Assembly (NCBI RefSeq): GCF_000981785.2
Contig: NZ_CP011304.1
Span: forward strand, 2,340,001 to 2,372,000
From: Microcystis aeruginosa NIES-2549
Lineage (GTDB): Bacteria; Cyanobacteriota; Cyanobacteriia; Cyanobacteriales; Microcystaceae
Length of the DNA: 32,000 nt
Direction: 5' to 3'
Both the position numbers and the translations under genes were made by a program. The notes beneath the pieces are model-generated. The model was not told where the DNA came from, searched no databases, and worked only from the letters and a program-made list of their open reading frames with translations. Numbering within the stretch: the first letter of the stretch is position 1; each line of letters opens with the position of its first letter. Below are positions 2,565 through 31,887 of this stretch, one piece after another.

Positions 2565-4148
2565 ATGAATCTAACGAACTTTCCTTGGTTAACTGCCATC
2601 ATCCTTTTTCCCATCGTCGCCGCTTTATTGGTTCCCATAATTCCCGATAAAGACGGTAAAACCGTGAGATGGTTTGCTCTGACGGTGGGATTAATCGACT
2701 TTGCCCTAATTATCTACGCTTTCTACACCAGTTACGATTTCGCTAATCCCAATCTGCAATTAGTGGAAAGTTACCAATGGTTGCCCGAAATTGACCTAAG
2801 ATGGTCCTTAGGAGCCGATGGCCTCTCCATGCCTCTGATTATCTTAACGGGATTTATCACCACTCTGGCTATCTTAGCGGCTTGGCCGGTCACTTTTAAA
2901 CCGAAACTATTCTACTTCCTGATGCTGTTGATGTACGGGGGACAGATTGCGGTGTTTGCCGTACAGGATCTGTTACTGTTCTTCCTCGTCTGGGAATTAG
3001 AATTGGTCCCCGTCTATCTGATCCTCTCTATTTGGGGCGGTAAACGCCGTCTCTACGCAGCCACCAAATTTATCCTTTACACCGCCGGAGGCTCCCTATT
3101 CATCCTTGTAGCGGCGCTGACGATGGCTTTTTATGGCGATACCGTCTCCTTTGACATGGTGACTATTGCTGGTAAAGACTTCCCCCTGAAACTGCAATTA
3201 TTTCTCTACGCCGGTTTTCTGATTGCCTACGGGGTAAAACTGCCCATCTTCCCCCTCCATACTTGGCTACCGGATGCCCACGGCGAAGCCACTGCCCCCG
3301 CCCATATGTTACTAGCGGGAATTTTGCTTAAAATGGGTGGTTATGCGCTCTTACGGATGAATATGGGGATGTTACCCGATGCTCACGCCGTTTTCGCCCC
3401 CGTTTTGGTGATTTTAGGGGTAGTTAATATTATCTACGCTGCCTTAACTTCCTTTGCCCAACGCAATCTTAAGCGCAAAATTGCCTATTCTTCCATCTCT
3501 CACATGGGATTTGTCCTGATTGGTATGGCTTCCTTTACCGATATTGGTACAAGTGGGGCGATGTTACAGATGATTTCCCACGGACTGATTGGGGCGAGTT
3601 TATTCTTTATGGTCGGTTGTACCTATGATCGCACCCATACCCTGATGTTAGACGAGATGGGCGGTGTCGGCAAGAAAATGAAGAAAGTTTTTGCCATGTG
3701 GACCACCTGTTCCCTCGCTTCCCTCGCTTTGCCCGGGATGAGCGGTTTTGTGGCGGAATTAATGGTATTTATCGGTTTTGCCACCAGTGATGCCTATAGT
3801 CCCACTTTCCGCGTCATCATCGTCTTTTTAGCGGCTATCGGTGTCATTCTCACCCCGATTTATCTGTTGTCCATGTTGCGAGAAATTCTCTACGGGCCGG
3901 AAAATAAGGAATTAGAAGAACACCATGTCCTAGTGGATGCGGAACCCCGGGAAGTCTTTATCATCGCTTCTCTATTAGTGCCAATTATCGGCATTGGACT
4001 CTATCCCAAAGTGGCCACGACGATTTACGATGCTACTACCAATAAATTAACCGCCCTAGCGCGTAATTCTGTCCCCAGTTTGGTACAACAGGCAAAGGCA
4101 AAAACCCCTAGTTTCTCCCTTTATTCCCTAAAAGCTCCCGAAATCTAA
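2565..4148 (+). CDS. ndhD: NAD(P)H-quinone oxidoreductase (NDH-1) subunit 4
   Basis: 527-aa polytopic membrane ORF. It carries the NuoM/NdhD hallmark [31 protein letters not shown] and an N-terminus typical of cyanobacterial NdhD. Confidence 0.9.
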
Positions 4149-4150
4149 GG

Positions 4151-4187
4151 AGTTACCAGTTATCAGTTATCAGTTATCAGTTATCAG
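4151..4187. repeat. Heptamer tandem array (GTTATCA)x~5, the reverse complement of the CTGATAA family, immediately after the ndhD stop
   Basis: Direct reading: agttaccagttatcagttatcagttatcagttatcag. Confidence 0.9.
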
Positions 4188-4209
4188 ATTTGAGTTTTAA
4201 GTGAGCAGT

Positions 4210-4567
4210 ATTAAATCCCACTTTCCGCACTTCTTAACATTCAATTGATAATTTTTACTAATATTAAATCCGGTTATTAAAGAATGATTATTTATTCTCC
4301 CTTTTGCCTTTTGCCTCTCCTCATAACTAGCCTGTACTCAACGAATTTAGTATAATATATTGCTGACAACCCTTTGACAGTAAGGATGATAGTTACAATC
4401 ATGGATTTTTATCAAGGTGAAGAATTGTAAATTTCTTTCTCAGAAAAAATCAATTATTGAAAATATTCTCAATAGTAGTTTCTACAATGAAGGTTTTTTG
4501 TCAAAACATCTTGGGGAATGTAAAAACATATAAAAGTATATGAAGATGTGCGGAATGTCGGTTAAAT
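4210..4567. mobile_element. Candidate non-autonomous element (MITE-like), AT-rich, with imperfect terminal inverted repeats
   Basis: Left end ATTAAATCCCACTTTCCGCACTTCTTAACAT versus the reverse complement of the right end, ATTTAACCGACATTCCGCACATCTTCATAT. They share an 8-nt core, TTCCGCAC, and match at roughly 21 of 30 positions by eye. AGT flanks both ends (4207-4209 and 4568-4570). There is no long ORF inside. Confidence 0.3.
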
Positions 4568-10043: not shown

Positions 10044-10144
10044 CTTTTCTTGAAACATCTTGATCAAGGAAAAAGTAAAAAACAGCAATCAGCGAAAAGA
10101 AAACGGCAATTTCCTACTTAAGACTGTCCACTTAAAACTCACAT

Positions 10145-10177
10145 CTGATAACTGATAACTGATAACTGATAACTGAT
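10145..10177. repeat. Heptamer tandem array (CTGATAA)x~4.6
   Basis: Direct reading: ctgataactgataactgataactgataactgat. Confidence 0.9.
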
Positions 10178-10244
10178 GGTGGGTTACGGCGAATACTAAA
10201 TAGGTGGTAAAATATCTAAATTATTGTCGCCTAACCCACCCTAC
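10178..10244. repeat. Small palindromic element GGTGGGTTACGGCGA...TCGCCTAACCCACCCTAC
   Basis: Inverted ends of about 15 nt (one extra base on the left) around an AT-rich ~35-nt centre. It ends in ACCCTAC immediately before the stop of the S1-domain gene. Confidence 0.7.
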
Positions 10245-17724: not shown

Positions 17725-18531
17725 TTGCCGAAACAAAGATTAGATTTATTATTAGTAGCCAAAAATCTCTGTGATTCCCGTCAACAGGCACAGCGATTAA
17801 TTCGCGCTGGAGAGGTGAAAGTCAATCACCAAATCATCGATAAACCGGCCACAGAAATCGATCCAGAAGCGGCGATCGAGGTTAAGCAGAAACTGCCCTA
17901 TTTGTCAAGGGGGGGCGAAAAATTAGCCAAGGCCTTAGAATTGTTTGCCATTGATGTCAGCGATCGCATTTGTTTAGATGGGGGCATTTCCACGGGGGGA
18001 TTTACCGATTGTCTCTTGCAAAAAGGGGCAAAACGGGTTTATGGGGTCGATGTGGGTTATGGACAAGTAGCGTGGAGTTTACGGCAGCATGAACGGGTTA
18101 TTTTACTAGAAAGAACTAATTTTCGCTATTTAACCCCAGAAAAGTTATACGGATCAGAAAAACCCGCCGATTTAGCGGTCATGGATCTGTCTTTTATTTC
18201 TCTGACCAAAGTGCTACCGACCCTGTGGACGCTATTAAATCCACCCCGAGAGGCGATTTTATTGGTCAAACCCCAATTCGAGGTGGGACGGGAAAAAGTC
18301 GGCAAAAAAGGGGTAGTTCGCGACTACCAAGACCAAGCAGGGGCAATTTTTCAGGTTTTACAGGCCGCCGAAGTCTTAGGATGGTTCTATCGGGGTTTAA
18401 CTTGGTCTCCCATTACCGGACCTGCGGGTAATGTCGAGTATCTTCTCTGGTTGTCCACCGAGACTGGCCCAGTTAGTCCCAGTTTAGCCGCGATCGCAGA
18501 AATCAGTCAAAAAGCGATCGAACAGTTTTAA
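17725..18531 (+). CDS. tlyA: TlyA-family rRNA (cytidine-2'-O)-methyltransferase
   Basis: TTG start. The S4-like N-terminus is RLDLLLV...SRQQAQRLIRAGEVKVN. The FtsJ-type fold shows in LDGGISTGGFTDCLLQKGAKRVYGVDVG. Confidence 0.85.
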   Translation: MPKQRLDLLLVAKNLCDSRQQAQRLIRAGEVKVNHQIIDKPATEIDPEAAIEVKQKLPYLSRGGEKLAKALELFAIDVSDRICLDGGISTGGFTDCLLQKGAKRVYGVDVGYGQVAWSLRQHERVILLERTNFRYLTPEKLYGSEKPADLAVMDLSFISLTKVLPTLWTLLNPPREAILLVKPQFEVGREKVGKKGVVRDYQDQAGAIFQVLQAAEVLGWFYRGLTWSPITGPAGNVEYLLWLSTETGPVSPSLAAIAEISQKAIEQF

Positions 18532-18551
18532 CCCCAGTGTTTTGTCAAGGC

Positions 18552-18785
18552 AGTGGGGAGATTTTCAGAAAAACCCTTGACAAATGGCGAGACTTGCTTT
18601 ATACTTTATGTATAATGGGAATCCGTGCGCCCATATATATAGGGTTTTTCGGCGAAGATAAGAGAGAAAAAAATAGACTGAAAAATCGGGTTGGATGAAG
18701 AGGGAAATTTTCTCTCCCCGACAAGCATTAAACAAAGCATTTCTGAGAGTCAAACCGAATCTTTGTCAGGTAGAGAAGTTTCAAG
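18552..18785 (+). repeat. Type IIG 5' module, copy A (promoter + leader + first ~28 codons)
   Basis: Aligns by eye with 21184-21375, 22584-22843 and 23012-23260. It is the most diverged copy. Confidence 0.9.
18577..18605 (+). promoter_or_regulatory. Predicted sigma70-type promoter: TTGACA - 17 nt - TATACT
   Basis: -35 TTGACA at 18577-18582 and -10 TATACT at 18600-18605, with exact 17-nt spacing. The same architecture is conserved in the three other module copies. Confidence 0.5.
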
Positions 18786-18895
18786 TATTCTTAGATACAA
18801 AAACGATGATCGGGGAGTTCAATATATCGGAAAATGGGAGAGATAACCCAAAAAAATTATCGTTAAATCATGTTAAGTCCCGTAGAAACGATTAA
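18695..18895 (+). pseudogene. Stub of a type IIG R-M gene N-terminus (MKREIFSPRQALNKAFLRVKPNLCQVEKFQ...) running into unrelated sequence
   Basis: The first ~30 codons are homologous to codons 1-30 of the 23162-26884 gene. The rest is unrelated, and the ORF ends 26 nt inside the next gene. Confidence 0.55.
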
Positions 18896-19250
18896 AATTC
18901 TCGAAAATCATCCCGATCGCACTTTTCCAGCTGGTGAAGTTATTTTTGCCGATGGCACGGAGGGCGAGTTAATGTACGGTATTCTTAGTGGAGAAGTGGA
19001 GATGTATGTCAAGGGACAATTGATAGAAACTCTAGAAAAAGGGGATGTATTCGGAGCAGGAGCGCTCCTGCACCCAGATAAACTGCGAGAATCCACAGCT
19101 ATCGCCAAAACTGATTGTAAATTAGCCTATATCAATCAACCGCAGTTTTTATTTGCCGTGCAGGAAACCCCCATGTTTGCGCTGGAAGTGTTAAGAAGTT
19201 ATTCCGATCGCTTTCGCAAGTTAAAAAAAATCTTCACCAGTGAAGCATAG
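18870..19250 (+). CDS. Cyclic nucleotide-binding domain protein
   Basis: 126-aa ORF with a cNMP-binding beta-barrel pattern (GDVFGAGALL...RESTAIAKTDCKLAYI). Confidence 0.75.
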   Translation: MLSPVETIKILENHPDRTFPAGEVIFADGTEGELMYGILSGEVEMYVKGQLIETLEKGDVFGAGALLHPDKLRESTAIAKTDCKLAYINQPQFLFAVQETPMFALEVLRSYSDRFRKLKKIFTSEA

Positions 19251-19279
19251 AGGAGCAAAAGAAAGCCATACCCCGAAAA

Positions 19280-20257
19280 CTATTGACCGAAAATCTCACC
19301 GATAGTTAAACGGGAACCATTGACCAAATCCCCACCAGAACGCGGTGATTTTCCCGATAATTGCACTTCTTTCAATAATAATAAACCCGCTCCTGTCTGC
19401 ACTACTGGCCCGAAATTTTTCCAGAGCGCCACGATCGATCCCACTTCTCCGCTTAGATCAGAAAGGTCTTTTGTCTGTAATTCTGGAGGAAGTTGACCGA
19501 GATCGTCTAGGGGAATAGTGGCCATCACTTTTAGGGGTTGTCCCCGGAAAGTGGTTAGCGCATTCGGATAAAAACCCCGGACTCGATCGTGAATTGTCCG
19601 GCCCGAATCTTGCCAGTGGATTAGATAGTCAGATTTTTGAATTAAAGGGGCATAGGTGGCATCGTCGTTATTTTGAGGAATTGGGGTAATTTCTGCTCGA
19701 TCGAGCTTAGAGAGGGTTTCTAGGAGCAAATCCGCCCCCATTTGGCCTAGGGTTGCTCCCACCTGTTCGGCATTGTCAAAAAGAGCGATCGGGCTGTAGG
19801 CTTTCAGTAACATCGATCCGGTGTCTAGGCCCGCATCCATTAACATGGTGGTAATGCCGGTTTCTTTTTCTCCCCTAGCGATGCACCACTGCACGGGGGC
19901 TGCTCCCCGATATTTGGGTAAAATTGAGCCATGAACGTTAATACAGCCTAATCGCGGCATCTCTAGAATTTCTGGGGAGAGAATTTGTCCGTAGGCAACG
20001 ACTACAAAGGCATCCGCTCGCGATTGTCTGAGAAAATTTAAGGTTTTAGCGTTTTTTTTCACACTTTTGGGCTGCAAAACCGGTATTTGCTGTTCTATGG
20101 CTATTTGTTTCACCGGTGAGGGGGTTAATTGATTACCCCTTCCCCGGCGCTTGTCCGGTTGGGTAACGACGGCAATTATTTCTATATCGGGATTGGCTAA
20201 TAATTTTTTTAGGGTGGGAACAGCAAAAGTCGGGGTTCCGAAAAAAACAATACGCAT
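19280..20257 (-). CDS. fmt: Methionyl-tRNA formyltransferase
   Basis: [20 protein letters not shown] and the hallmark [18 protein letters not shown]; 325 aa. Confidence 0.92.
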
Positions 20258-20299
20258 GGGAGAAGGGGGTATTTTTCAGTTATCAGTGTGCAGTAATCA

Positions 20300-21094
20300 T
20301 TAACGACTAACTATGCCAGACCATTGGATTTTTTTGGCTTTTTCCCGACGATAGGAGAAAAAATGATCTTCTTGTTGATAGGTACAAAAAGGAGCGATCG
20401 CGATTTGTTCATCCCTAATTCCTAACTGTTGTAGTTGATGATAAATCACCCGTCGCACGTCTAAGCGCACTTTTCCTTTTTCCTCGTCAGCAAATAAGGG
20501 GGAAGGGGAGAGGTTAAATAAATTCGCCAGAATTTGCTCGGGATTGGTTTCTTGGGGAAATAAACTTAAACCCACTTCTGCGGCAACTTCTCCATCTACT
20601 TGATACACTTCTCCGGCAATTGCTGGCCCCAGGGCCAAGACTAAGTTATCTAAACAACTACCGGAGTTTAATAACTGCTTAACTGCTTTGACAACTATTC
20701 CCTTAGCTGTCCCTCTCCATCCAGAATGAATCGCCACCCCAACACCGCTAGAGCGATCGCCTATTAGTACGGGCGTACAATCAGCACTGGCTACCCAAAT
20801 CCCTTGACCGGAAGCATCGGTGATAATTCCATCCGCTTCGGCTATTTCTGGGTTAGTAATCCCTTGGGGATTTAATAGGCGATCGCCATGTACCTGTTTG
20901 ACCCGATAAACTGGTACATTTGCCCCTAAAGCGTCCGTAAAAGCTTCCGGGGTTTGGGGGTAATAATGACGGGTAAAAAAGCCGTGGGACCAATCCTCTA
21001 GGAGATTACAGGTAAGATAGGGCAATCCTTGCCATGTTTGCCATTGCCACAGAGAAGTCTCGGTTAATCGGACATTGATCGCTACATTGGTCAC
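20300..21094 (-). CDS. pgeF: Peptidoglycan editing factor PgeF (YfiH/DUF152, laccase-domain family)
   Basis: 264-aa ORF with a KQVHG motif, the conserved AIHSGWRGT motif and a C-terminal CTY..EDHFFSYRR. Confidence 0.85.
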   Translation of the reverse strand: MTNVAINVRLTETSLWQWQTWQGLPYLTCNLLEDWSHGFFTRHYYPQTPEAFTDALGANVPVYRVKQVHGDRLLNPQGITNPEIAEADGIITDASGQGIWVASADCTPVLIGDRSSGVGVAIHSGWRGTAKGIVVKAVKQLLNSGSCLDNLVLALGPAIAGEVYQVDGEVAAEVGLSLFPQETNPEQILANLFNLSPSPLFADEEKGKVRLDVRRVIYHQLQQLGIRDEQIAIAPFCTYQQEDHFFSYRREKAKKIQWSGIVSR

Positions 21095-21183
21095 AGTCTA
21101 AGCCTCTCTGGCTGCAATAATACCTTATTCTCTCCTATCCTAGTTCTGAGCTTGGCTAAAAGGCAACCGGAAGATTATTACTT

Positions 21184-21375
21184 AAAACCCTTGACAAATG
21201 GCGAGATTTGCTTTAGACTTTTTATATAATGGGAATCCGTGCGCCCATATATATATAGTTTTTGGGCAAAGATAAGAGAGAAAAAAATAGACTCCAAAAC
21301 CGGGTTGAGTAGGAATGAGGATAAAGGTGTGAAGACGGAAAATTTCTCTCCCGGACAAGCATTAAACAAAGCATT
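21184..21375 (+). repeat. Type IIG 5' module, copy B (promoter + leader + first ~15 codons, GTG in place of ATG)
   Basis: Aligns with copies C and D up to ...ATTAAACAAAGCATT (21375), then diverges. Confidence 0.9.
21191..21219 (+). promoter_or_regulatory. Predicted sigma70-type promoter: TTGACA - 17 nt - TAGACT
   Basis: -35 at 21191-21196, -10 at 21214-21219. Confidence 0.45.
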
Positions 21376-21415
21376 ATTCGAGATTCGCGACAGATTGAGG
21401 AAAGGGCAGATTTAA
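21329..21415 (+). pseudogene. Stub of a type IIG N-terminus (VKTENFSPGQALNKA...) fused to unrelated residues, 28 codons
   Basis: GTG replaces the ATG of the other copies. Homology stops after codon ~15, and a stop follows at 21413-21415. Confidence 0.5.
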
Positions 21416-21486
21416 TTTTAATGTTATGTGGGGATGAATATTATCCAAATACCTCTAATCAGGGGATTATGGCAATTATCGAGGAT

Positions 21487-21573
21487 TTATAGTTCTCCTT
21501 TGAAGGTTTTTTCTCTGAGTTGTTTCACCTCGTTGATTTTGCCTTGTAGGTTATCAAGATAAGTGAAGATTTC
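21487..21573 (-). pseudogene. Relic of a type I restriction specificity subunit (HsdS) C-terminus
   Basis: My minus-strand translation is EIFTYLDNLQGKINEVKQLREKTFKGEL followed by a stop. The I..YLD.LQ.KI...K.L...FKGEL ending is the conserved C-terminal helix of HsdS proteins. The frame is closed by an upstream stop at 21574-21576, so only ~28 codons remain. Confidence 0.4.
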
Positions 21574-21592
21574 TTATTCTAAATCCCCACTT

Positions 21593-22012
21593 TCACTCAT
21601 ATTCACCCTCACCTATAAACAAATCATAAAACAAAGAAACCGAAATAATAACCGTTTGTTCTAATTCTATCATCTCCTCAAAATCCCGATCACCAGTAAT
21701 CAAAAAATCCGCCTCACTAACCCTTGCTAAAGCGATAAACTTAGCATCTTTGGCATCTCTGGCAAAATCTACAGTAACATTAACTTCTATTACTTTAGGA
21801 ATCGTTTCAATTTTATCAAGCCATTCCTGTCTTACTTCATCAGTTAACTTTAATTTCCGTCTATTTAAAACTTCTCGATATTCGGTTAAAATTTCCTGAG
21901 AAACTATCCAATCAATATCAGAATGGTCACTAATAAATTGAACAATCTCTCTCGGTTTTCTTCCTTTTAAAACTGCAGAAACAAGAATGTTAGTATCAAC
22001 AATAACCTTCAT
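21593..22012 (-). CDS. PIN-domain toxin (putative toxin-antitoxin system toxin component, PIN family)
   Basis: 139-aa ORF. MKVIVDTNILVSAVL supplies the first acidic residue, followed by ...SQEILTEYREVL...DAKFIALARVSEADFLITGDRDF. It overlaps the upstream gene by 4 nt (ATGA). Confidence 0.85.
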   Translation of the reverse strand: MKVIVDTNILVSAVLKGRKPREIVQFISDHSDIDWIVSQEILTEYREVLNRRKLKLTDEVRQEWLDKIETIPKVIEVNVTVDFARDAKDAKFIALARVSEADFLITGDRDFEEMIELEQTVIISVSLFYDLFIGEGEYE

Positions 22013-22386
22013 TCTCCTCTCCGATAAGCTTCAATTTCGGCGGCTATTTCTTCTTCTGTAATATCTTGAATACCCGGAATTGCTTGAGTTTTATTAAATA
22101 AATTCCTTAATTCCTGACTTAACCTTACTCTTTCAGGATCAATCGGTTTGTCCTTATTTTGTTCCCGTTCTTTTCGATACTTCCTAATCTTTTCTTTTAA
22201 TAAGGCTTTTGCGGATTCTCTCCCTTTAACATAATCGGGTAATATAATTTCATCCTCCTGTTCTTCTAATAGCTGAAACGCTTTAGAGATAACCTCTTGA
22301 GGGGTATTATATTTACCAGTTTTCAGTTGTCTTTCTAAAAACTGTTCCTGTTCAGGGGTTAACGTAATTTGTATCATAATTACCAA
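22009..22386 (-). CDS. ParD/RHH-like antitoxin partnered with the PIN toxin
   Basis: The N-terminus ITLTPEQEQFLERQLKTGKYNTPQEVISKAFQLLEEQE matches the ParD-type pattern (...G.Y.s.sEvvr.al.lLee.e). Its stop overlaps the toxin start. The start could be Met1 or Met4. Confidence 0.7.
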   Translation of the reverse strand: MVIMIQITLTPEQEQFLERQLKTGKYNTPQEVISKAFQLLEEQEDEIILPDYVKGRESAKALLKEKIRKYRKEREQNKDKPIDPERVRLSQELRNLFNKTQAIPGIQDITEEEIAAEIEAYRRGE

Positions 22387-22608
22387 ATAGTTTGAAGATT
22401 AGATAAAGCTTGAATATAGCAGAAACCTTAATCTGACCCTGATGCCTAACAACATTTTCTTTATCCTGATTTAAAACCCCCTTAATCTCAGCCATCAACC
22501 CCCTGATTCTTGCATCCTTTTTCATAATAGCACTCAGCAACTGTTCGGGGGGTAAATGTTCAAAATCTTCCAGGAACTGGGGAAGTGGGGAAATTTTCAG
22601 AAAAACCC

Positions 22609-22637
22609 TTGACAAATGGCGAGACTTGCTTTAGACT
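22609..22637 (+). promoter_or_regulatory. Predicted sigma70-type promoter: TTGACA - 17 nt - TAGACT
   Basis: -35 at 22609-22614, -10 at 22632-22637. Confidence 0.45.
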
Positions 22638-22745
22638 TTTTAGATAATGGGAATCCGTGCGCAAATATATATATAGTTTTTGAGCGAAGATAAGAGAGAA
22701 AAAAATAGACCCCAAAATCGGGTTGAGCAGGAAGAGGATAAAGGT

Positions 22746-22883
22746 ATGAAGACAGAAAATTTCTCTCCCCGACAAGCATTAAACAAAGCATTTCTGAGAG
22801 TCAAACCGAGTCGTAGTCAGGTAGAGAAGTTTCAAACCCACCTGACTGGAAAGAGGGTGTGGGGTGTAGGGTGTGGGGTGTAG
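22746..22883 (+). pseudogene. Truncated type IIG N-terminus (MKTENFSPRQALNKAFLRVKPSRSQVEKFQTHL then frame lost in an insertion)
   Basis: The first 33 codons are identical in protein to the full gene at 23162. The ORF then reads into the G-rich insertion and stops at 22883. Confidence 0.65.
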
Positions 22884-22937
22884 GGAAGGAAACCTCTTTC
22901 ATCTGTGGGGGTGAAAATTTTTTCATCGGGACTAACT
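22844..22937. repeat. 94-bp insertion carrying a (GGGTGT/GGGGTGTA) repeat with G-quadruplex potential, bracketed by an 8-bp inverted repeat
   Basis: G-runs at 22855-57, 22861-64, 22869-71, 22875-78 and 22883-85. GAAAGAGG (22849-22856) pairs with CCTCTTTC (22893-22900). The segment is absent from copy D at the equivalent position. Confidence 0.7.
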
Positions 22938-23011
22938 ACAATTCTTAGGGAGTATAAACGAGACAGAATCCAAAGCTGACTGCTGATGGATATAAAATCG
23001 GCTCGATTTTT

Positions 23012-23260
23012 TTCTAAAAACCCTTGACAAATGACGAGACTTGCTTTAGACTTTTTAGATAATGGGAATCCGTGCGCAAATATATATATAGTTTTTGAGC
23101 AAAGATAAGAGAGAAAAAAATAGACTCCAAAATCGGGTTGAGTAGGAATAGGGATAAAGGTATGAAGACAGAAAATTTCTCTCCCCGACAAGCATTAAAC
23201 AAAGCATTTCTGAGAGTCAAACCGAGTCGTAGTCAGGTGGAGAAGTTTCAAACCCACCTA
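23012..23260 (+). repeat. Type IIG 5' module, copy D (the functional 5' end of the full-length gene)
   Basis: Reference copy for the alignment of A, B and C. Confidence 0.9.
23024..23052 (+). promoter_or_regulatory. Predicted promoter of the type IIG gene: TTGACA - 17 nt - TAGACT
   Basis: -35 at 23024-23029 and -10 at 23047-23052, about 110 nt upstream of the ATG at 23162. Confidence 0.55.
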
Positions 23261-26200
23261 GAACAACTTTTGGGGAGTATAAACGAGACAGAATCCGAGG
23301 AGTTCCATAAAAACCTGCTTGCAGACTTTCTCAAACACAGCTACTATAGTCCCCAACATTTCATCAACACCAAGGGAAGGAATGATTTAGTCATCCATAA
23401 TGGGAAAGAATCGCGGGATTCCGTGGGGGTAATACTGGAAGTCAAGAAACCCAGCAATAAAAGCGAGATGCTGCGGAGAGACAAACTCAACTGTAAAGCA
23501 TTACAGGAATTACTCCTCTACTTCCTACGGGAAAGAATAACCGAGAAAAACCTAGAGATAAAACACCTGATTGCTACCAATATATATGAGTGGTTTATCT
23601 TCGATGGGAATATCTTCGAGAGACTATTCGCACAAAATCAGGAACTTGTCAGACAGTTTAATGACTTTGAGACGGGGAGACTAACGGGAAAAACCACCGA
23701 CTTCTTCTACAAACAGATAGGGGAACCCTTCCTGAACTCCATACTCGATTCCCTGACATACACCCATTTTGACTTGCGGGAATACTCCCAAACCATCCGG
23801 GAAGACGAACATAACCTTATCAGTCTCTATAAAATCTTTTCTCCCGAACACCTCTTAAAACTCCCCTTTGCGAACGATAGCAACAGTCTCGACAAAAACT
23901 TTTATAGTGAACTGCTGCATATCATCGGATTGACAGAGATAAAAGAGGGAGGAAAAAAACTCATCCAACGTCTGCAACCGGCAGCGCGACAACCCGGTTC
24001 GCTGCTAGAGAACGCTATCAGTCAAGTGGAGAGTTTAGATAAAATCTCTCGTTTACCCAATCCCGAAGAATTTGGGGAGACGGAAGAGGAGAGACTATTG
24101 AATATCGGTTTAGAGTTGGGGATAACCTGGATAAATAGAATCCTCTTCCTCAAACTATTAGAAGCGCAGATAATTAGGTATCATCGGGGGGATAAATCCC
24201 TAGGGTTTCTCAATTTAGGCAAAATTGCCAACTATGACGACTTAAATCGCTTATTTTTCAGCGTTTTGGCCAAAAAACAGACAGAAAGAAGCAAAGACAT
24301 CCAGAATACCCATACTCAGGTTCCCTATCTCAACAGTTCCCTATTTGAACCGACAGACTTAGAACAGTCAACCATAGTCATCAGTAACCTGCGTTCGGAG
24401 AATATAGAGATTTTTGCAGGAACAGTCTTAAAGGATAGTCAGGGGAAAAAGCGAACAGGAGAAATCAACGCTTTAGCATACCTATTTGAGTTTCTCAATG
24501 CCTACGATTTTAGCAGCGAAGGTGGGGAAGCGATACAGGAGGATAATAAGACTCTTATCAATGCGTCAGTGTTGGGATTAATCTTCGAGAAAATCAACGG
24601 ATATAAGGATGGTTCCTTTTTCACCCCCGGTTTCATCACTATGTATATGTGTCGGGAAACGATTCGACGCGCAGTAATAGAGAAATTTAACCAGAGTCAG
24701 GGATGGGATTGTCAGACAATCGAGGATGTGTATAACCGCATCAAAGACAAAACGGCAGCCAATGCTATTATCAATAGTCTCAAAATTTGTGATCCTGCGG
24801 TGGGTTCGGGACATTTTCTTGTTTCTGCTTTGAACGAGATAATCGCGATTAAGAGTGAGTTACAGATTTTATTGGATAAAGAGGGTAAAACTCTCAGGGA
24901 TTATCGGGTTGAGGTGGTGAACGATGAGTTAATCGTCACCGATGATGACGGTAATCTGTTTGAATATAATCCCCGCAACCGAGAAAGTCAGCGAGTACAG
25001 GAGACTTTATTTCAGGAAAAACAGCGTCTGATTGAGGGGTGTCTCTTTGGAGTTGATATCAATCCCAACTCGGTGAAAATCTGTCGGTTGCGTTTATGGA
25101 TTGAGTTACTCAAGAATGCTTACTACAAAGCAGATAACGAGTTAGAGACGTTACCGAATATCGATATTAATATCAAGGTTGGCAATTCTCTGATTAGTCG
25201 CTTTGGGTTATCCAATGATTTACAAGTCTTTTCCCGCAAAAGTCGTTTAAGTATCGAGAGTTATAAGGATGCGGTGAGAGTCTATCGCAACGCGGAGGAT
25301 AAGTCGCAAAAGCGTGAGATGGAGAGATTGATAAGCGAGATTAAGAGTAGTTTTCGTCAGACTTTACAGTTAGATGAACCTCTGAAAAAGCGCTTGCGGG
25401 GTTTGGAAACGGATTTATATAGTCTAGAGAATCAAATTTTGTTATTTGAGGAGTCACCCAAGGAAAAGAAAGCGCGGGAAAGGAAGATTATTCAGTTAAG
25501 GAATGAGATTGATAAGTTACGTCCGCAACTAGAGGAGATTGAAAGCGGTAAGATTTATCATAATGCTTTTGAATGGCGCTTCGAGTTCCCCGAAGTCCTA
25601 GATGATAAGGGGAATTTTATCGGTTTTGATGTCATTATAGGTAATCCTCCTTGGGGAGCAAAAATAGATAATAAACATCTAACCAAAATAAAAGAGAAAA
25701 ATTCCGATATTATCGTGAGAATGATAGATTCTTTCATGTTTTTTGTTAATTTGACATTCTCCATTAAATCGCAATATGGTCTTATCTGTCAAATTATCCC
25801 CGATGTTATTCTCTATCAAGTTGATAATGAAAAATTACGAGAGAAAATTTTTAAAACCCATCAATTAGAGATAGCTTTTAATCTGGGAGATAGAATTTTT
25901 GAAGATGTTGCTAGACCATGTTGTATTATACTTCTGACATCGAAATTTACTAATATATCTTGGGTGGGAGAATATCAAAAATCTTCTGATGATAGTGTTA
26001 ATAGTCTCAGTCACAATTTATTAATACCAATAGAGACATCTTTTTTTAAAACAATTCCTAATCAAGTCATTACTACTAAAAACCTAATTGGATACAAAAT
26101 TATCAATAGATATAATAAAATTAAACTTAGAGACTTAATAGATCAAGATGGAATTCAAAGAGGAGTCAGTCCTGATTTAAAAGAAGCTTTTATTGTTGAT

Positions 26201-26884
26201 AAAAAAAATATCGATAAATTCCATCTGGAGCAAAATTTTATTTTTCCTACTATTACTGGTGGGAGGGATTTAAATAAATACTTGATCTCAGATATTGATA
26301 AAAAGATTATCTATACTAAAAAAACGGATGATCCTCAATTAATACCGCAAATAATTGAGTATTTAAAATCTTTTAAAGAGCGAATAACTTGTGTAGAAGT
26401 TAAAGAAAATAAACATCCTTTTTGGTCTTTGCACCGTCCCAGAAACCAAGAAATTTTTCTAAAACCAGAAAAAATTATTGGTGTGATTACTGGAGATAAA
26501 ATTATTGTTGCTTTGGATAACAATCAAATATTTCCAACGGATGGACTATACTTAATGTCCAGTAGCGGAAGATTATCCAATAAATTTTTATTAGGAGTTT
26601 TAAACTCAAAAATCATTACTTATTTTTATCGATTATTGTCAATGGAAGTTAATCGTACTTTAGCTCAAATAAAGCCAACAATTTTAGAAGAAGTACCGAT
26701 TGAAACACATCCTGAAACCTTAGTAAAAAAAATTGAAATTAAAGTCGATCAAATTCTCACGGCTAAAAAATCTAATCCCAAAGCTGACACCAGCGAGTTA
26801 GAAAAAGAGATTGACAAAATAGTGTATGAATTGTATGGATTAAGTGAGGAAGAAATCAGGATAATAGAGGGGGAAATAAAATAA
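23162..26884 (+). CDS. Type IIG (Eco57I-like) single-chain restriction endonuclease / N6-adenine DNA methyltransferase with a C-terminal target-recognition domain
   Basis: The N-terminal PD-(D/E)xK-type nuclease pattern is GRNDLVIH...GVILEVKKP. Methyltransferase motif I is ICDPAVGSGHFLV (from 24791), followed by FGVDINPNSVKICRLRLWIELL, NIKVGNSLI and motif IV VIIGNPPWG (NPPW codons 25643-25654). A long K/E/R-rich, probably coiled-coil segment lies between the motifs. The C-terminal ~400 aa are TaqI-like-specificity-domain-like and end in IVYELYGLSEEEIRIIEG. I prefer ATG 23162 (MKTENFSPRQ) over the track's TTG at 23138. Confidence 0.85.
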   Translation: MKTENFSPRQALNKAFLRVKPSRSQVEKFQTHLEQLLGSINETESEEFHKNLLADFLKHSYYSPQHFINTKGRNDLVIHNGKESRDSVGVILEVKKPSNKSEMLRRDKLNCKALQELLLYFLRERITEKNLEIKHLIATNIYEWFIFDGNIFERLFAQNQELVRQFNDFETGRLTGKTTDFFYKQIGEPFLNSILDSLTYTHFDLREYSQTIREDEHNLISLYKIFSPEHLLKLPFANDSNSLDKNFYSELLHIIGLTEIKEGGKKLIQRLQPAARQPGSLLENAISQVESLDKISRLPNPEEFGETEEERLLNIGLELGITWINRILFLKLLEAQIIRYHRGDKSLGFLNLGKIANYDDLNRLFFSVLAKKQTERSKDIQNTHTQVPYLNSSLFEPTDLEQSTIVISNLRSENIEIFAGTVLKDSQGKKRTGEINALAYLFEFLNAYDFSSEGGEAIQEDNKTLINASVLGLIFEKINGYKDGSFFTPGFITMYMCRETIRRAVIEKFNQSQGWDCQTIEDVYNRIKDKTAANAIINSLKICDPAVGSGHFLVSALNEIIAIKSELQILLDKEGKTLRDYRVEVVNDELIVTDDDGNLFEYNPRNRESQRVQETLFQEKQRLIEGCLFGVDINPNSVKICRLRLWIELLKNAYYKADNELETLPNIDINIKVGNSLISRFGLSNDLQVFSRKSRLSIESYKDAVRVYRNAEDKSQKREMERLISEIKSSFRQTLQLDEPLKKRLRGLETDLYSLENQILLFEESPKEKKARERKIIQLRNEIDKLRPQLEEIESGKIYHNAFEWRFEFPEVLDDKGNFIGFDVIIGNPPWGAKIDNKHLTKIKEKNSDIIVRMIDSFMFFVNLTFSIKSQYGLICQIIPDVILYQVDNEKLREKIFKTHQLEIAFNLGDRIFEDVARPCCIILLTSKFTNISWVGEYQKSSDDSVNSLSHNLLIPIETSFFKTIPNQVITTKNLIGYKIINRYNKIKLRDLIDQDGIQRGVSPDLKEAFIVDKKNIDKFHLEQNFIFPTITGGRDLNKYLISDIDKKIIYTKKTDDPQLIPQIIEYLKSFKERITCVEVKENKHPFWSLHRPRNQEIFLKPEKIIGVITGDKIIVALDNNQIFPTDGLYLMSSSGRLSNKFLLGVLNSKIITYFYRLLSMEVNRTLAQIKPTILEEVPIETHPETLVKKIEIKVDQILTAKKSNPKADTSELEKEIDKIVYELYGLSEEEIRIIEGEIK

Positions 26885-29919: not shown

Positions 29920-29947
29920 GTAGGGTTGATTCATGAATCAACCCTAC
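29920..29947. repeat. 28-nt perfect palindrome GTAGGGTTGATTCATGAATCAACCCTAC between the convergent adhE and gloB genes; possible bidirectional terminator or REP-like element
   Basis: Identical to 2238-2265. It sits 35 nt after the adhE stop and 64 nt from the gloB stop, and is followed by a TTTGCCT-type heptamer repeat (29950-29980). Confidence 0.85.
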
Positions 29948-30947: not shown

Positions 30948-31505
30948 ATGACGATCAAATTTCGGTTTCATCCAGAGAAAGCAGTTGAAGCCGCTGCTAT
31001 ACTCTTAAAGCTGCACGGCAAACCGATGAAGTATTTAGGGTTGCTGAAAATGCTCTATATAGCTGACCGTCTTGCTTTAAAAACCATGGATCAACCAATT
31101 ACTGGGGATAGATATGTATCAATGGATTATGGACCGGTTCTCAGGGGTGTTTATGATTTGATTAAAGGACAGCCCGTGGACTCTGCTTTACCCCTGTGGT
31201 CGAAATATATTTCTCCCCGGGATTCTAATTATGTTGACCTGCTGCAATATCCCGGCAATGAAGAACTCTGTGAAGAAGAAGAAATGATTCTTAAACAGGT
31301 TTACAAGACTTTTGGCCATCTCAATCCCTTTCTTGTAGCCGAATGGACTCACGATTTACCAGAATGGAAGGATCCCCATGGTTCGGCTATTCCAATTTTA
31401 GTGGAGGATGTTTTGCGATCTATGGGTAAAACGGAGGAGGAAATCGAAGATATTAGCCAAGAAGCCCAGCGAGAAGCCTATTTAGATGGAGCTTTACATG
31501 GCTAG
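30948..31505 (+). CDS. Panacea (DUF4065, SocA/GepA-like) domain protein, putative PanA-type antitoxin
   Basis: LKMLYIADRLALKTMDQPITGDRYVSMDYGPVLRGVYDLIKG matches the DUF4065 core (KLLYLAD...G.PITGD.YVA...GPV...VYD) as I recall it. Confidence 0.75.
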   Translation: MTIKFRFHPEKAVEAAAILLKLHGKPMKYLGLLKMLYIADRLALKTMDQPITGDRYVSMDYGPVLRGVYDLIKGQPVDSALPLWSKYISPRDSNYVDLLQYPGNEELCEEEEMILKQVYKTFGHLNPFLVAEWTHDLPEWKDPHGSAIPILVEDVLRSMGKTEEEIEDISQEAQREAYLDGALHG

Positions 31506-31887
31506 TCTGGTAGTCAAGCTGGGGGATGCCTTTTTAATCGATACACCCCCTAATAAGCAACATCTCTATATTGCGATCGCAAAGACTTCTGAAAATAGAT
31601 ATTTATTTGTCAATGTTACAACTCGAAGAAGCAGTTCGGAAGCTACTTGTGTGCTTTTGCCCGGCCTTGGTGTCCCGAATTTTATCGTCTGTGAATCCGT
31701 GATTGCCTATCAATTTGCCCGGGAGATGGATGCCACGGAATTAGCCAGTTTAATCACTGCGGGTAGTCCGATTCCAAAAGGCTCCTGTTCAGCCACAATT
31801 CTCGCACAGATTCAGCAAGGTGGTCTAGTTTCTCGACGACTGAAAAACAAGTACAAAATTGCTCTTAGAGCTTTCTTAGATACATAG
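31498..31887 (+). CDS. Hypothetical 129-aa protein translationally coupled to the Panacea-domain gene; candidate toxin partner
   Basis: The ATG at 31498 overlaps the upstream stop in ATGGCTAG (8-nt overlap). An alternative ATG lies at 31486. No family recognised. Confidence 0.5.
   Translation: MASLVVKLGDAFLIDTPPNKQHLYIAIAKTSENRYLFVNVTTRRSSSEATCVLLPGLGVPNFIVCESVIAYQFAREMDATELASLITAGSPIPKGSCSATILAQIQQGGLVSRRLKNKYKIALRAFLDT

Follow-up and report, generated by a model that had tools for sequence, protein, structure and literature searches.

A stretch of 32,000 nucleotides from Microcystis aeruginosa NIES-2549 (contig NZ_CP011304.1, positions 2,340,001 to 2,372,000; hereafter the window) carries four copies, A to D, of a module composed of a promoter, a leader of about 100 nt and the first codons of a type IIG-like restriction-modification (RM) gene. 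The reading that we favor as a whole, with a probability of roughly 0.6, is that of duplication scars generated by recombination and lying on a portable promoter class with a presumed pause site for RNA polymerase. Copy D would be the working promoter, 5′ untranslated region (5′UTR) and start of the Microcystis RM gene, and copies A, B and C would be non-coding relics of partial duplications of its 5′ end, each retaining the promoter and each cut at another codon. The repeats of the window would be ordinary scars of this kind; it is the promoter class on which they lie that is of interest. This class, its match to the architecture of known pause elements and its local arrays, which include a piece of a neighboring gene, appear to be new.

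Four copies of the module in the window

The copies lie in direct orientation on the + strand (Table 1), where the first-pass annotation of this DNA had placed them; sequence reading, repeat finding and alignment agree on this. A promoter scan likewise recovered TTGACA-17-TA(G/T)ACT in all four, with a score of 10-11 out of 12 by sequence match. The 19-mer ATAATGGGAATCCGTGCGC occurs four times in the window, against 0.01 occurrences expected by chance. Over 243 nt, 7 mismatches and one gap separate copies C and D, close to the earlier count by eye, and the sole difference in their coding part is the GTA/GTG pair at 23239 already recorded. B departs from D at 13 positions; A shows 24 such differences as well as a 20-nt deletion which takes out the ribosome-binding site (RBS) of its leader. 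Copy B starts with GTG and the other three with ATG; D alone runs on into a full-length gene. Downstream of the -10 element every copy has a second hexamer of similar type (hexamer 2, Table 1). A weak terminator-like hairpin (AAAATCGGCTCGATTTT followed by T7, 22994-23016) is found just upstream of the promoter of D.

The coding part of copy C is broken after codon 33 by a repeat-rich insertion of 94 bp (22844-22937), in which GGGTGTG/GGGTGTA heptamers lie between the inverted sequences GAAAGAGG...CCTCTTTC. L002 and L010 share this insertion (L numbers designate loci from public genomes and metagenomes used for comparison).

The promoter and leader had been described as being as well conserved as the codons. 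This is true and also uninformative. Across 30 Microcystis copies the nucleotide diversity (pi) is 0.07 in the promoter, 0.06 in the conserved motif and 0.08-0.09 in the leader, and because it is uniform over these parts, conservation of the module within Microcystis carries no inference. It is also about equal to the divergence of the flanking genes between strains (2-7%). Shared ancestry and conversion explain the non-coding conservation within the genus.

Stubs in other Microcystis genomes

In an exact 18-mer scan that took one genome for each species, ten species-level genomes of Microcystis contained the module, and a metagenome scan added many more copies; the locus is syntenic in many of them. 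All Microcystis copies found sit around this RM locus. Thirteen of 78 copies reach a full-length gene. The remaining 65 break off as stubs at about 17 different points, four of which lie in the leader and the others at codons 1, 6, 13, 16, 18, 24, 25, 30, 33, 39, 40, 45 and 99. Further lesions include the RBS deletion of copy A in the window, an ATG to ATA change in copy A of L014 and the GTG of B. Among matches to the 5′ coding part of the gene, 69 of 80 have the promoter just upstream, the remainder being mostly pieces of copies split by insertions. By their sequence, the stubs, which are 92-97% identical to the resident RM gene, are pseudogene scars.

Several stubs can be followed from strain to strain. 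The A stub has an identical junction in at least 14 loci and occupies a conserved place among housekeeping genes, where versions ending at codon 39 with filler (longer versions in 6 loci), at codon 30 with filler and at codon 30 are observed. The junction of the B stub in the window is shared with L002 and L010, and L049, L111 and L113 have a B stub that extends to codon 24 and is followed by filler. Since longer and shorter stubs of A type and of B type have identical downstream sequence, they indicate progressive erosion from the 3′ side.

Nine copies carry repetitive extragenic palindromic (REP) sequences inserted at codon 18, near a gene for a REP-associated tyrosine transposase (RAYT). 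In stubs of M. novacekii, M. wesenbergii and M. ichthyoblabe, the insertion at this codon comprises the REP-like palindrome GTAGGGATAATTCATGAATTATCCCTAC and a run of half-palindromes, and one interval between modules in M. novacekii contains the RAYT gene.

Probable recombination between copies and origin of the array

Strains have one, two or three copies at the RM gene. The three-copy form is that of the window, L002 and L010. In L014, L119 and L028, B is joined directly to the gene, without the toxin-antitoxin (TA) cassette that separates B from C in the window and without C itself. In L110, the TA cassette and a C-type module are joined directly to the full-length gene. A version of the PIN/ParD cargo of 82% identity lies between the modules of L049 and L084, and because this allele of the cassette has diverged so far, the arrangement must be old. 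The variant sites CCC/AAA, GGG/TAG and TAT/TAG are shuffled over copies and strains, which indicates gene conversion or crossing-over. Finally, L050, a metagenome contig of 1264 nt, leads from the end of pgeF and the upstream flank of B through a single module into the downstream junction of A and the start of the cyclic nucleotide monophosphate (cNMP)-binding gene. Either A and B have recombined to give this contig, as a circle or a duplication, or the assembly was mis-joined at the repeat.

Relics would be gained and lost via homologous recombination between copies, probably by unequal crossing-over or by Campbell-type integration and excision of circles. If a circle bearing the promoter and a 5′ fragment of the gene integrated by a single crossover, the layout of stub, cargo and intact gene would result, and this layout could also spread between strains by crossovers within the module and within the gene. 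The locus also gathers REP/RAYT elements, insertions resembling miniature inverted-repeat transposable elements and the TA cassette. Microcystis genomes are plastic, rich in repeats and rich in RM systems, and partial duplications, stubs, REP/RAYT insertions and RM turnover are ordinary in them (PMC2442094). A simple tandem duplication was rejected for C and D, as their upstream flanks differ.

The first of two readings offered by the first-pass annotation was that the stubs are scars of serial replacement of type IIG genes, with the conserved 5′ module as recombination anchor. The scars, their erosion, the many independent break points and strain products that fit recombination between copies make it largely right as to scars and a homology anchor. 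Serial replacement at the module is not borne out: the stubs are very close to the resident gene (see above) and the swap observed among strains lies at the other end of it. The N-terminal part of about 830 codons is conserved among strains (blastn against 15 Microcystis loci). In a comparison with the same gene in L004, L009, L016 and L020, identity is 94-98% over these first ~830 codons and over the last ~50, and the segment 25652-26795, the TaqI_C specificity part, is unalignable. This indicates swapping of the specificity domain among strains.

A different origin, which we consider unlikely, would make the module a mobile element, or the passenger of one, that enters the start of the RM gene and supplies it with a new promoter and 5′ coding end, the former start persisting as a stub. 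SXT, for example, restores the 5′ end of its target gene prfC upon insertion. Mobilization could be due to the RAYT/REP system or to an unseen recombinase. The stub-cargo-intact gene architecture is compatible with such an element, as are the sharp homology boundaries near the -35 element, the 'D-type' flank ATATAAAATCGGCYYGATTTTTTTT always found with the downstream copies of the arrays, and the REP palindromes and RAYT gene between modules of M. novacekii. However, the A-D intervals of the window contain no integrase, transposase or recombinase (the only Pfam-assigned genes between B and C are PIN/ParD) and about 17 break points speak against a site-specific target, both of which distinguish the locus from integrative elements of the SXT-prfC type. 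The REP sequences are more simply explained as later insertions in dead stubs; L020 has the same junction without REP. Moreover, all Microcystis copies found are confined to this locus. A phage or plasmid origin was rejected as well, since phage, plasmid and viral collections gave no match save chance portal-gene hits and one promoter-less contig.

Highly improbable is a programmed variation system in which the 5′ modules would serve as sites for switching RM alleles or their expression, comparable to type I hsdS shufflons. It would accommodate both the copy number of one to three among strains and the exchanged specificity domain. Nevertheless, the repeats are direct rather than inverted, no silent specificity cassettes follow the stubs and no recombinase gene is adjacent, so that the window does not have the organization of a phase-variable RM shufflon. 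The breakpoint of the swap (~25652) is moreover 2.5 kb away from the module, and the stubs erode over time.

A promoter family across cyanobacteria

The exact 18-mer TAATGGGAATCCGTGCGC was identified in 31 cyanobacterial loci, among them loci of Microseira, Microcoleus, Potamolinea, Phormidiaceae, Iphinoe, Anabaena catenula and Trichormus. It is always located at a fixed distance 3′ of TTGACA-17-TAnnnT, while the spacer and all downstream sequence differ. A metagenome scan with GRAATCYGTGCGCNCATATA gave 84 loci. The family is represented in about 38 non-redundant and unrelated contexts, distributed between Chroococcales, Oscillatoriales and Nostocales, and has the layout TTGACA-17-TAnnnT-5 nt-TATAAT-GG(G/A)-AATCYGTGCGCnCATATA. 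TTGACA is exact in 29 of the 38 contexts and the spacer measures 17 nt in 26. A profile search added further degenerate copies and local arrays. The second reading of the first-pass annotation, a propagating promoter and leader unit with its own regulatory RNA function, is thus borne out for its first part, since the promoter and the first ~26 transcribed bases recur in ~38 contexts. The RNA function receives no support from folding, covariation or Rfam. The exact motif string was not found in a search of 8 million papers, and the family apparently corresponds to an undescribed, portable class of cyanobacterial promoters defined by its sequence.

Members of the family often form arrays. Five units of ~260 nt are present in Potamolinea L015, three each in L030, L031 and L079, two each in L058 and L072, two plus two in Microseira wollei L017, and five modules in M. 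novacekii. Each unit of the Oscillatoriales arrays closes with the final ~14 codons of a convergent archease gene in reverse complement, unlike the Microcystis units, in which the 5′ part of the RM gene is present in sense. No matching tandem small-RNA array of cyanobacteria came up in a literature search. Resemblance to Xer/dif sites, tRNA 3′ ends and IHF sites was considered by eye and dropped, as their defining parts were not matched.

The neighboring genes are varied. In sense orientation they include kinase-FGE (formylglycine-generating enzyme) genes, an FGE-sulfatase gene, a CIA30-like gene and genes beside prfC. About half of the family contexts are antisense or convergent, with archease, a class V aminotransferase, a PIN TA pair, an NB-ARC/TPR gene and AAA/RloB-like genes as neighbors.

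Three further features of the family may be mentioned. In L069 (10505-11351), from an unrelated freshwater cyanobacterium, a family unit is convergent with a PIN-like pair, as copy B is with PIN/ParD. In Nostocales kinase-FGE genes, a conserved block, AATTGGGGCTGACTTTGGACAAGATGCTATCTTCCCC, lies directly 5′ of the ATG (L033, ~2314-2380 on the - strand; L037, L038, L040-L044, immediately ahead of position 1501 or 701), and its ends, GGGG...CCCC, could pair across the ribosome-binding region. At the CCG/CTG site (23070-23072 in copy D, and relatives), the middle C of CCG in AATCCGTGCGC has been replaced by T in many lineages independently of one another; metagenome contexts show both forms at about equal frequency, as at a neutral site or a mutational hot spot.

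A second hexamer and a predicted pause

The search pattern left free the six bases ahead of GG(G/A)AATC. In 40 contexts these bases are T27 A37 T32 A33 A29 T39, followed by G in 35. With A at 93% in second position and T at 98% in sixth, and with middle positions that vary freely (TATAGT, TACAAT, TATTGT, TATCCT, TAAGCT), the profile is that of a -10 hexamer. Hexamer 2 sits 5 nt after the first -10 element in 24 of 35 contexts, so that the start which the upstream promoter predicts falls on its A. For copy D, spacing alone predicts a start at A23059 and a pause at U23073/G23074.

Sigma70-dependent promoter-proximal pausing depends on a -10 repeat in the first transcribed bases, a GGG discriminator element bound by sigma region 1.2, an AT-rich segment and an elemental pause site with G at -10, the pause occurring 10-11 nt past the hexamer. 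At lambda pR′, which has the -10-like hexamer, GGG and the AT-rich segment, this distance is 10 nt; E. coli promoters that pause at +16-20 have an extra -10-like hexamer whose second base is at -1 to +2 (PMC5001585, PMC7876045). Copy D reads GATAAT-GGG-AAT-CCGU|G, with the U|G step 10 nt past the hexamer. GGG and the U|G step are present in the window, several orthologues have GGA, ATA or GTA, and these positions are partly fixed by the search patterns. The family combines an upstream promoter with a -10-like hexamer whose second base falls at -1 to +2 of the predicted start. By analogy we infer a built-in sigma-dependent pause at about +15: the primary sigma factor would rebind hexamer 2 after initiation and hold RNA polymerase there, which would throttle or gate a very strong promoter. 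In E. coli, sigma-dependent promoter-proximal pauses are relieved by Gre factors, which cyanobacteria lack (PMC7026648). No description of sigma-dependent pausing in cyanobacteria was found in a literature search.

It is possible, though we find it clearly less convincing, that hexamer 2 (TATAAT and the GGG discriminator) is a true second promoter, P2, which overlaps the first, P1, and competes with it without any pause. Transcription would then start at the YG of AATCYG, and GTGCGCnCATATA would be the start site and initially transcribed region. Hexamer 2 is indeed conserved in the manner of a real -10 element, and in the A-type copies of Microcystis it belongs to an extended -10, TGTATAAT. 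L127 has a -35-like TTGAAC 18 nt before hexamer 2 and no upstream hexamer, and L042 retains TATATT and AAATCTGTGCGC without upstream TTGACA. Such a promoter would also explain the conservation of AATCYGTGCGC even where GGG is lost. However, 34 of 38 contexts have a complete near-consensus promoter 11 nt upstream, whose predicted start is the A of hexamer 2. L127 excepted, no -35-like element is found at the right distance from hexamer 2, and a polymerase on P1 would occlude P2.

Several points weigh against the combination of duplication scars and a pausing promoter that we prefer. The start site, the pause and the promoter activity of the stubs are predictions. The 5′ orthologues of the Nostocales kinase genes often lose GGG (GGA, ATA, GTA) and keep AATCYGTGCGC, and because this sequence outlasts GGG, the pause consensus fails to explain the best-conserved part. 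The block GCGCnCATATA(TATAGGGG) also falls outside the pause determinants, and in view of L127, hexamer 2 may be a true -10 element. Concerning the scars, L050 is a short-read contig of 1.3 kb, possibly mis-joined at the repeat, and the upstream flanks of C and D are not the same. Moreover, sharp 5′ boundaries located 1-20 nt from the -35 element in several genera could reflect a dedicated mobilization mechanism.

A more ambitious reading, which we consider rather unlikely, is that promoter, sigma-dependent pause and the ~15-nt block form a conserved, horizontally portable cassette, either recombinogenic or selected for dosage, that seeds arrays. If so, the arrays would capture ends of neighboring genes, and their sense or antisense transcripts would control RM, TA, archease/RtcB and kinase genes. 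This would be the first natural sigma-dependent pause module in a Gre-less phylum and a class of 'mobile promoters' provided with a mechanism.

Leader RNA and micro-ORF

The 8-nt complementarity reported between GAGAGAAA (23109-23116) and TTTCTCTC (23176-23183) in copy D is present as described. It raises the question of a cis-regulatory RNA, in which the GAGAGAAA/UUUCUCUC stem or a 5′ hairpin, AUGGG-N10-CCCAU, would control translation or stability of the RM mRNA, with stub transcripts as decoys or small RNAs. The pairing does bracket the RBS and start codon in most copies and is part of the predicted centroid structures of B and C. The proposal is nonetheless improbable. Folding energies of eight leaders, four from the window and four from other genera, equal those of dinucleotide shuffles (RNAfold, z from -1.65 to +0.29). 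The control stem is nearly invariant and shows no covariation: where it does change, one arm alone is affected and pairing is lost (A.C in 5 and 3 sequences). The conserved F-S-P of DUF7149 is encoded by its 3′ arm. Many family members have a disrupted 5′ hairpin (n = G or A; D-type CAAAT; L037; L038), RNAalifold over 27 contexts gives -0.31 kcal/mol and no structure, and duplexes between motif and downstream sequence are overall no better than shuffles. No Rfam family reaches the gathering score in the window and eight loci, and an E-value threshold applied to 18500-23400 returned noise. With neither an Rfam match nor a covarying structure, the leader does not resemble a riboswitch, a small RNA or another cis-regulatory RNA.

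The conserved block can also be read as a leaderless micro open reading frame (micro-ORF), MGIRAxI(Y), for an arrest or leader peptide akin to the GIRAGP of SecM. Nearly all exact-core copies keep ATG GGA ATC CGT GCG CnC ATA in frame, within ORFs of 7-79 codons. Residue 6, however, may be P, Q, L, H or R, and in metagenome contexts the 'start' is ATG, GTG or CTG. Since this start varies while the T two bases before GG is invariant, the signature is that of a -10 hexamer and not of a codon. Orthologues free of search bias, namely 5′ regions of Nostocales kinase genes obtained through protein homology, read TATAATGGAAATCTGTGCGCCC (MEICAP), TATTATGGTAATCTATGGGCGC (MVIYGRR*), AATAATATAAATCTGTAGCGCC and TATATTGTAAATCTGTGCGCCC. 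The changes are non-synonymous, the start codon is lost or altered and the peptide itself disappears (MEICAPIYI, MVIYGRR*); MGIRAxIY, to which we leave a negligible chance, was discarded as a leader or arrest peptide.

The RM gene, its neighbors and other repeats

The gene behind copy D (Table 1) has the composition of a type IIG enzyme as far as domain assignment can tell: an N-terminal nuclease region, a gamma-class N6-adenine methyltransferase and a C-terminal specificity domain in one polypeptide. A D...EVK motif can be read in the N-terminal part, and similarity to PglX-like and Alw26I-like methyltransferases is below the cut-off (NCBIfam). Just 3′ of the RM gene, L026 (5440-6694) and L009 (330-413) have a diverged copy of promoter and motif (TTGACAAAAGCC...TATAATGGGAATCCGTGCCTAAATATA), ahead of a CIA30/NmrA-like gene which it would drive and which is absent at this position in the window.

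Table 1 Copies of the module and associated genes (positions in the window)
Feature	Position	Strand	First promoter	Hexamer 2 and conserved block	Description
Copy A	18552-18785	+	18577-18605: -35 18577-18582; -10 TATACT 18600-18605	TATAAT 18611-18616, TG before; block to ~18637	ATG 18695; stub of ~30 codons
cNMP-binding domain gene	18870-19250	+			126 aa; Pfam PF00027; first intact gene 3′ of copy A
Copy B	21184-21375	+	21191-21219: -35 21191-21196; -10 TAGACT 21214-21219	TATAAT 21225-21230	GTG 21329; stub of 16 codons; stop reached after 28 codons
PIN-family toxin	21593-22012	-			Between B and C; Pfam, NCBIfam
ParD/RHH antitoxin	22009-22386	-			Between B and C; Pfam, NCBIfam
Copy C	22584-22971 (22584-22843, resumes 22938-22971)	+	22609-22637: -35 22609-22614; -10 22632-22637	GATAAT 22643-22648	ATG 22746; stub to codon 45
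Copy D	23012-23260 (promoter and 5′UTR 23012-23161)	+	23024-23052: -35 TTGACA 23024-23029; -10 TAGACT 23047-23052	GATAAT 23058-23063; GGG 23064-23066, then AAT; block to ~23086	Start of the RM gene
Type IIG-like RM gene	23162-26884	+			1240 aa; Pfam DUF7149, DUF7814, Eco57I/N6_Mtase, TaqI_C

The interval between A and B holds the cNMP-binding gene and, on the opposite strand, fmt and a PgeF-like gene. The arrangement of copy A and the cNMP-binding gene is kept in L014, L021, L022 and L028, and this gene is probably driven by the promoter of A; a weaker promoter-like site at 18763-18791 is an alternative. The PIN/ParD pair is convergent with the promoter of B, which points antisense into it. 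The relics would not be neutral: besides A as the most likely promoter of the cNMP-binding gene, B would fire antisense into the PIN/ParD pair and C would place a second promoter ahead of D. Stubs with seemingly live, strong promoters may in this way rewire their neighbors, in sense for the cNMP-binding gene and in antisense for the TA pair, and they constitute a datable strain series of promoter capture and erosion. The promoter class itself makes both sigma-dependent pausing in Gre-less cyanobacteria and the spread of 'mobile promoters' testable.

Elsewhere in the window, a SocA/Panacea-domain gene (30948-31505) overlaps an ORF of 133 aa (31486-31887), probably another TA pair. At 2095-2265, ten tandem copies of the 16-nt sequence TAGGGTTGATTCATCG, which corresponds to the 5′ half of a REP-like palindrome, lead into the full palindrome GTAGGGTTGATTCATGAATCAACCCTAC (2238-2265). 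This palindrome recurs at 29920-29947. Such tandem arrays of half-REPs look unusual. Related palindromes and half-palindrome arrays, (GGAATTATCCCYAC)n, break stubs near a RAYT gene (L001, 555-1133) in other Microcystis species. Runs of CTGATAA/CTGATTA heptamers are found at 1252-1353, 4146-4216 and 10109-10190, and 4157-4214 and 10118-10175 form arms of 58 nt, 93% complementary and 5.9 kb apart. Heptamers of AACTGAT type fill the 5′UTRs of the Nostocales kinase-FGE genes (L037, L040-L042).

Comparison with known systems

The layout of a truncated 5′ copy with its promoter, followed by cargo and an intact gene, together with variants of one, two and three copies, resembles the products of Campbell-type insertion-duplication or unequal crossing-over. 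It departs from simple insertion-duplication in the upstream flanks of C and D, which differ.

In Nostocales, small-RNA genes with individual promoters are known to occur in tandem arrays, for example NsiR1 upstream of hetF. The units described here are likewise arranged head to tail, measure 180-400 nt and have a promoter each. However, they share no conserved RNA body or terminator, and their transcribed part is lineage-specific and often a fragment of a neighboring gene.

REP/RAYT systems (REPIN) are represented in several Microcystis species by 28-nt palindromes beginning with GTAG and by a RAYT gene between modules. The inserted GTAGGG...CCCTAC elements fit the definition of a REPIN. The module, in contrast, is non-palindromic and lacks the GTAG end, which makes the REPs passengers in the stubs.

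Putative mobile promoters are similar promoters found before unrelated genes, mostly without known mechanism or function (Nijveen, Matus-Garcia, van Passel 2012, PMC3575422). As in these, the genes downstream of the module are unrelated, within a genome and over genera and orders, and neither a mobilizing element nor an Rfam match was identified. The defining similarity, at least 80% over at least 50 nt ahead of non-homologous genes, is reached within Microcystis, where A (cNMP-binding gene) and D (RM gene) are ~82-85% identical over ~210-235 nt; across genera, with ~26-45 nt conserved, it is not. Unlike putative mobile promoters, the family keeps across genera just its functional elements (the -35, two hexamers and ~20 nt after the start), and its units often occur in local arrays that drag along a piece of a neighboring gene.

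Finally, the promoter resembles the sigma70 pause elements of lambda and phage 82 pR′ and those of the 'G1d' class of E. coli promoters, with which it shares an early hexamer whose second base is at the predicted ~+1 and, in copy D, GGG and an AT-rich segment. It differs from them in that the likeness is one of sequence alone, in its cyanobacterial host, in that no Q-like antiterminator is known to act on it, and in the additional conserved GCGCnCATATA(TATAGGGG), which has no counterpart there. The G-10, Y-1, G+1 step of these elements, ~10 nt past the hexamer (PMC5001585, PMC7876045), is found in register in copy D.

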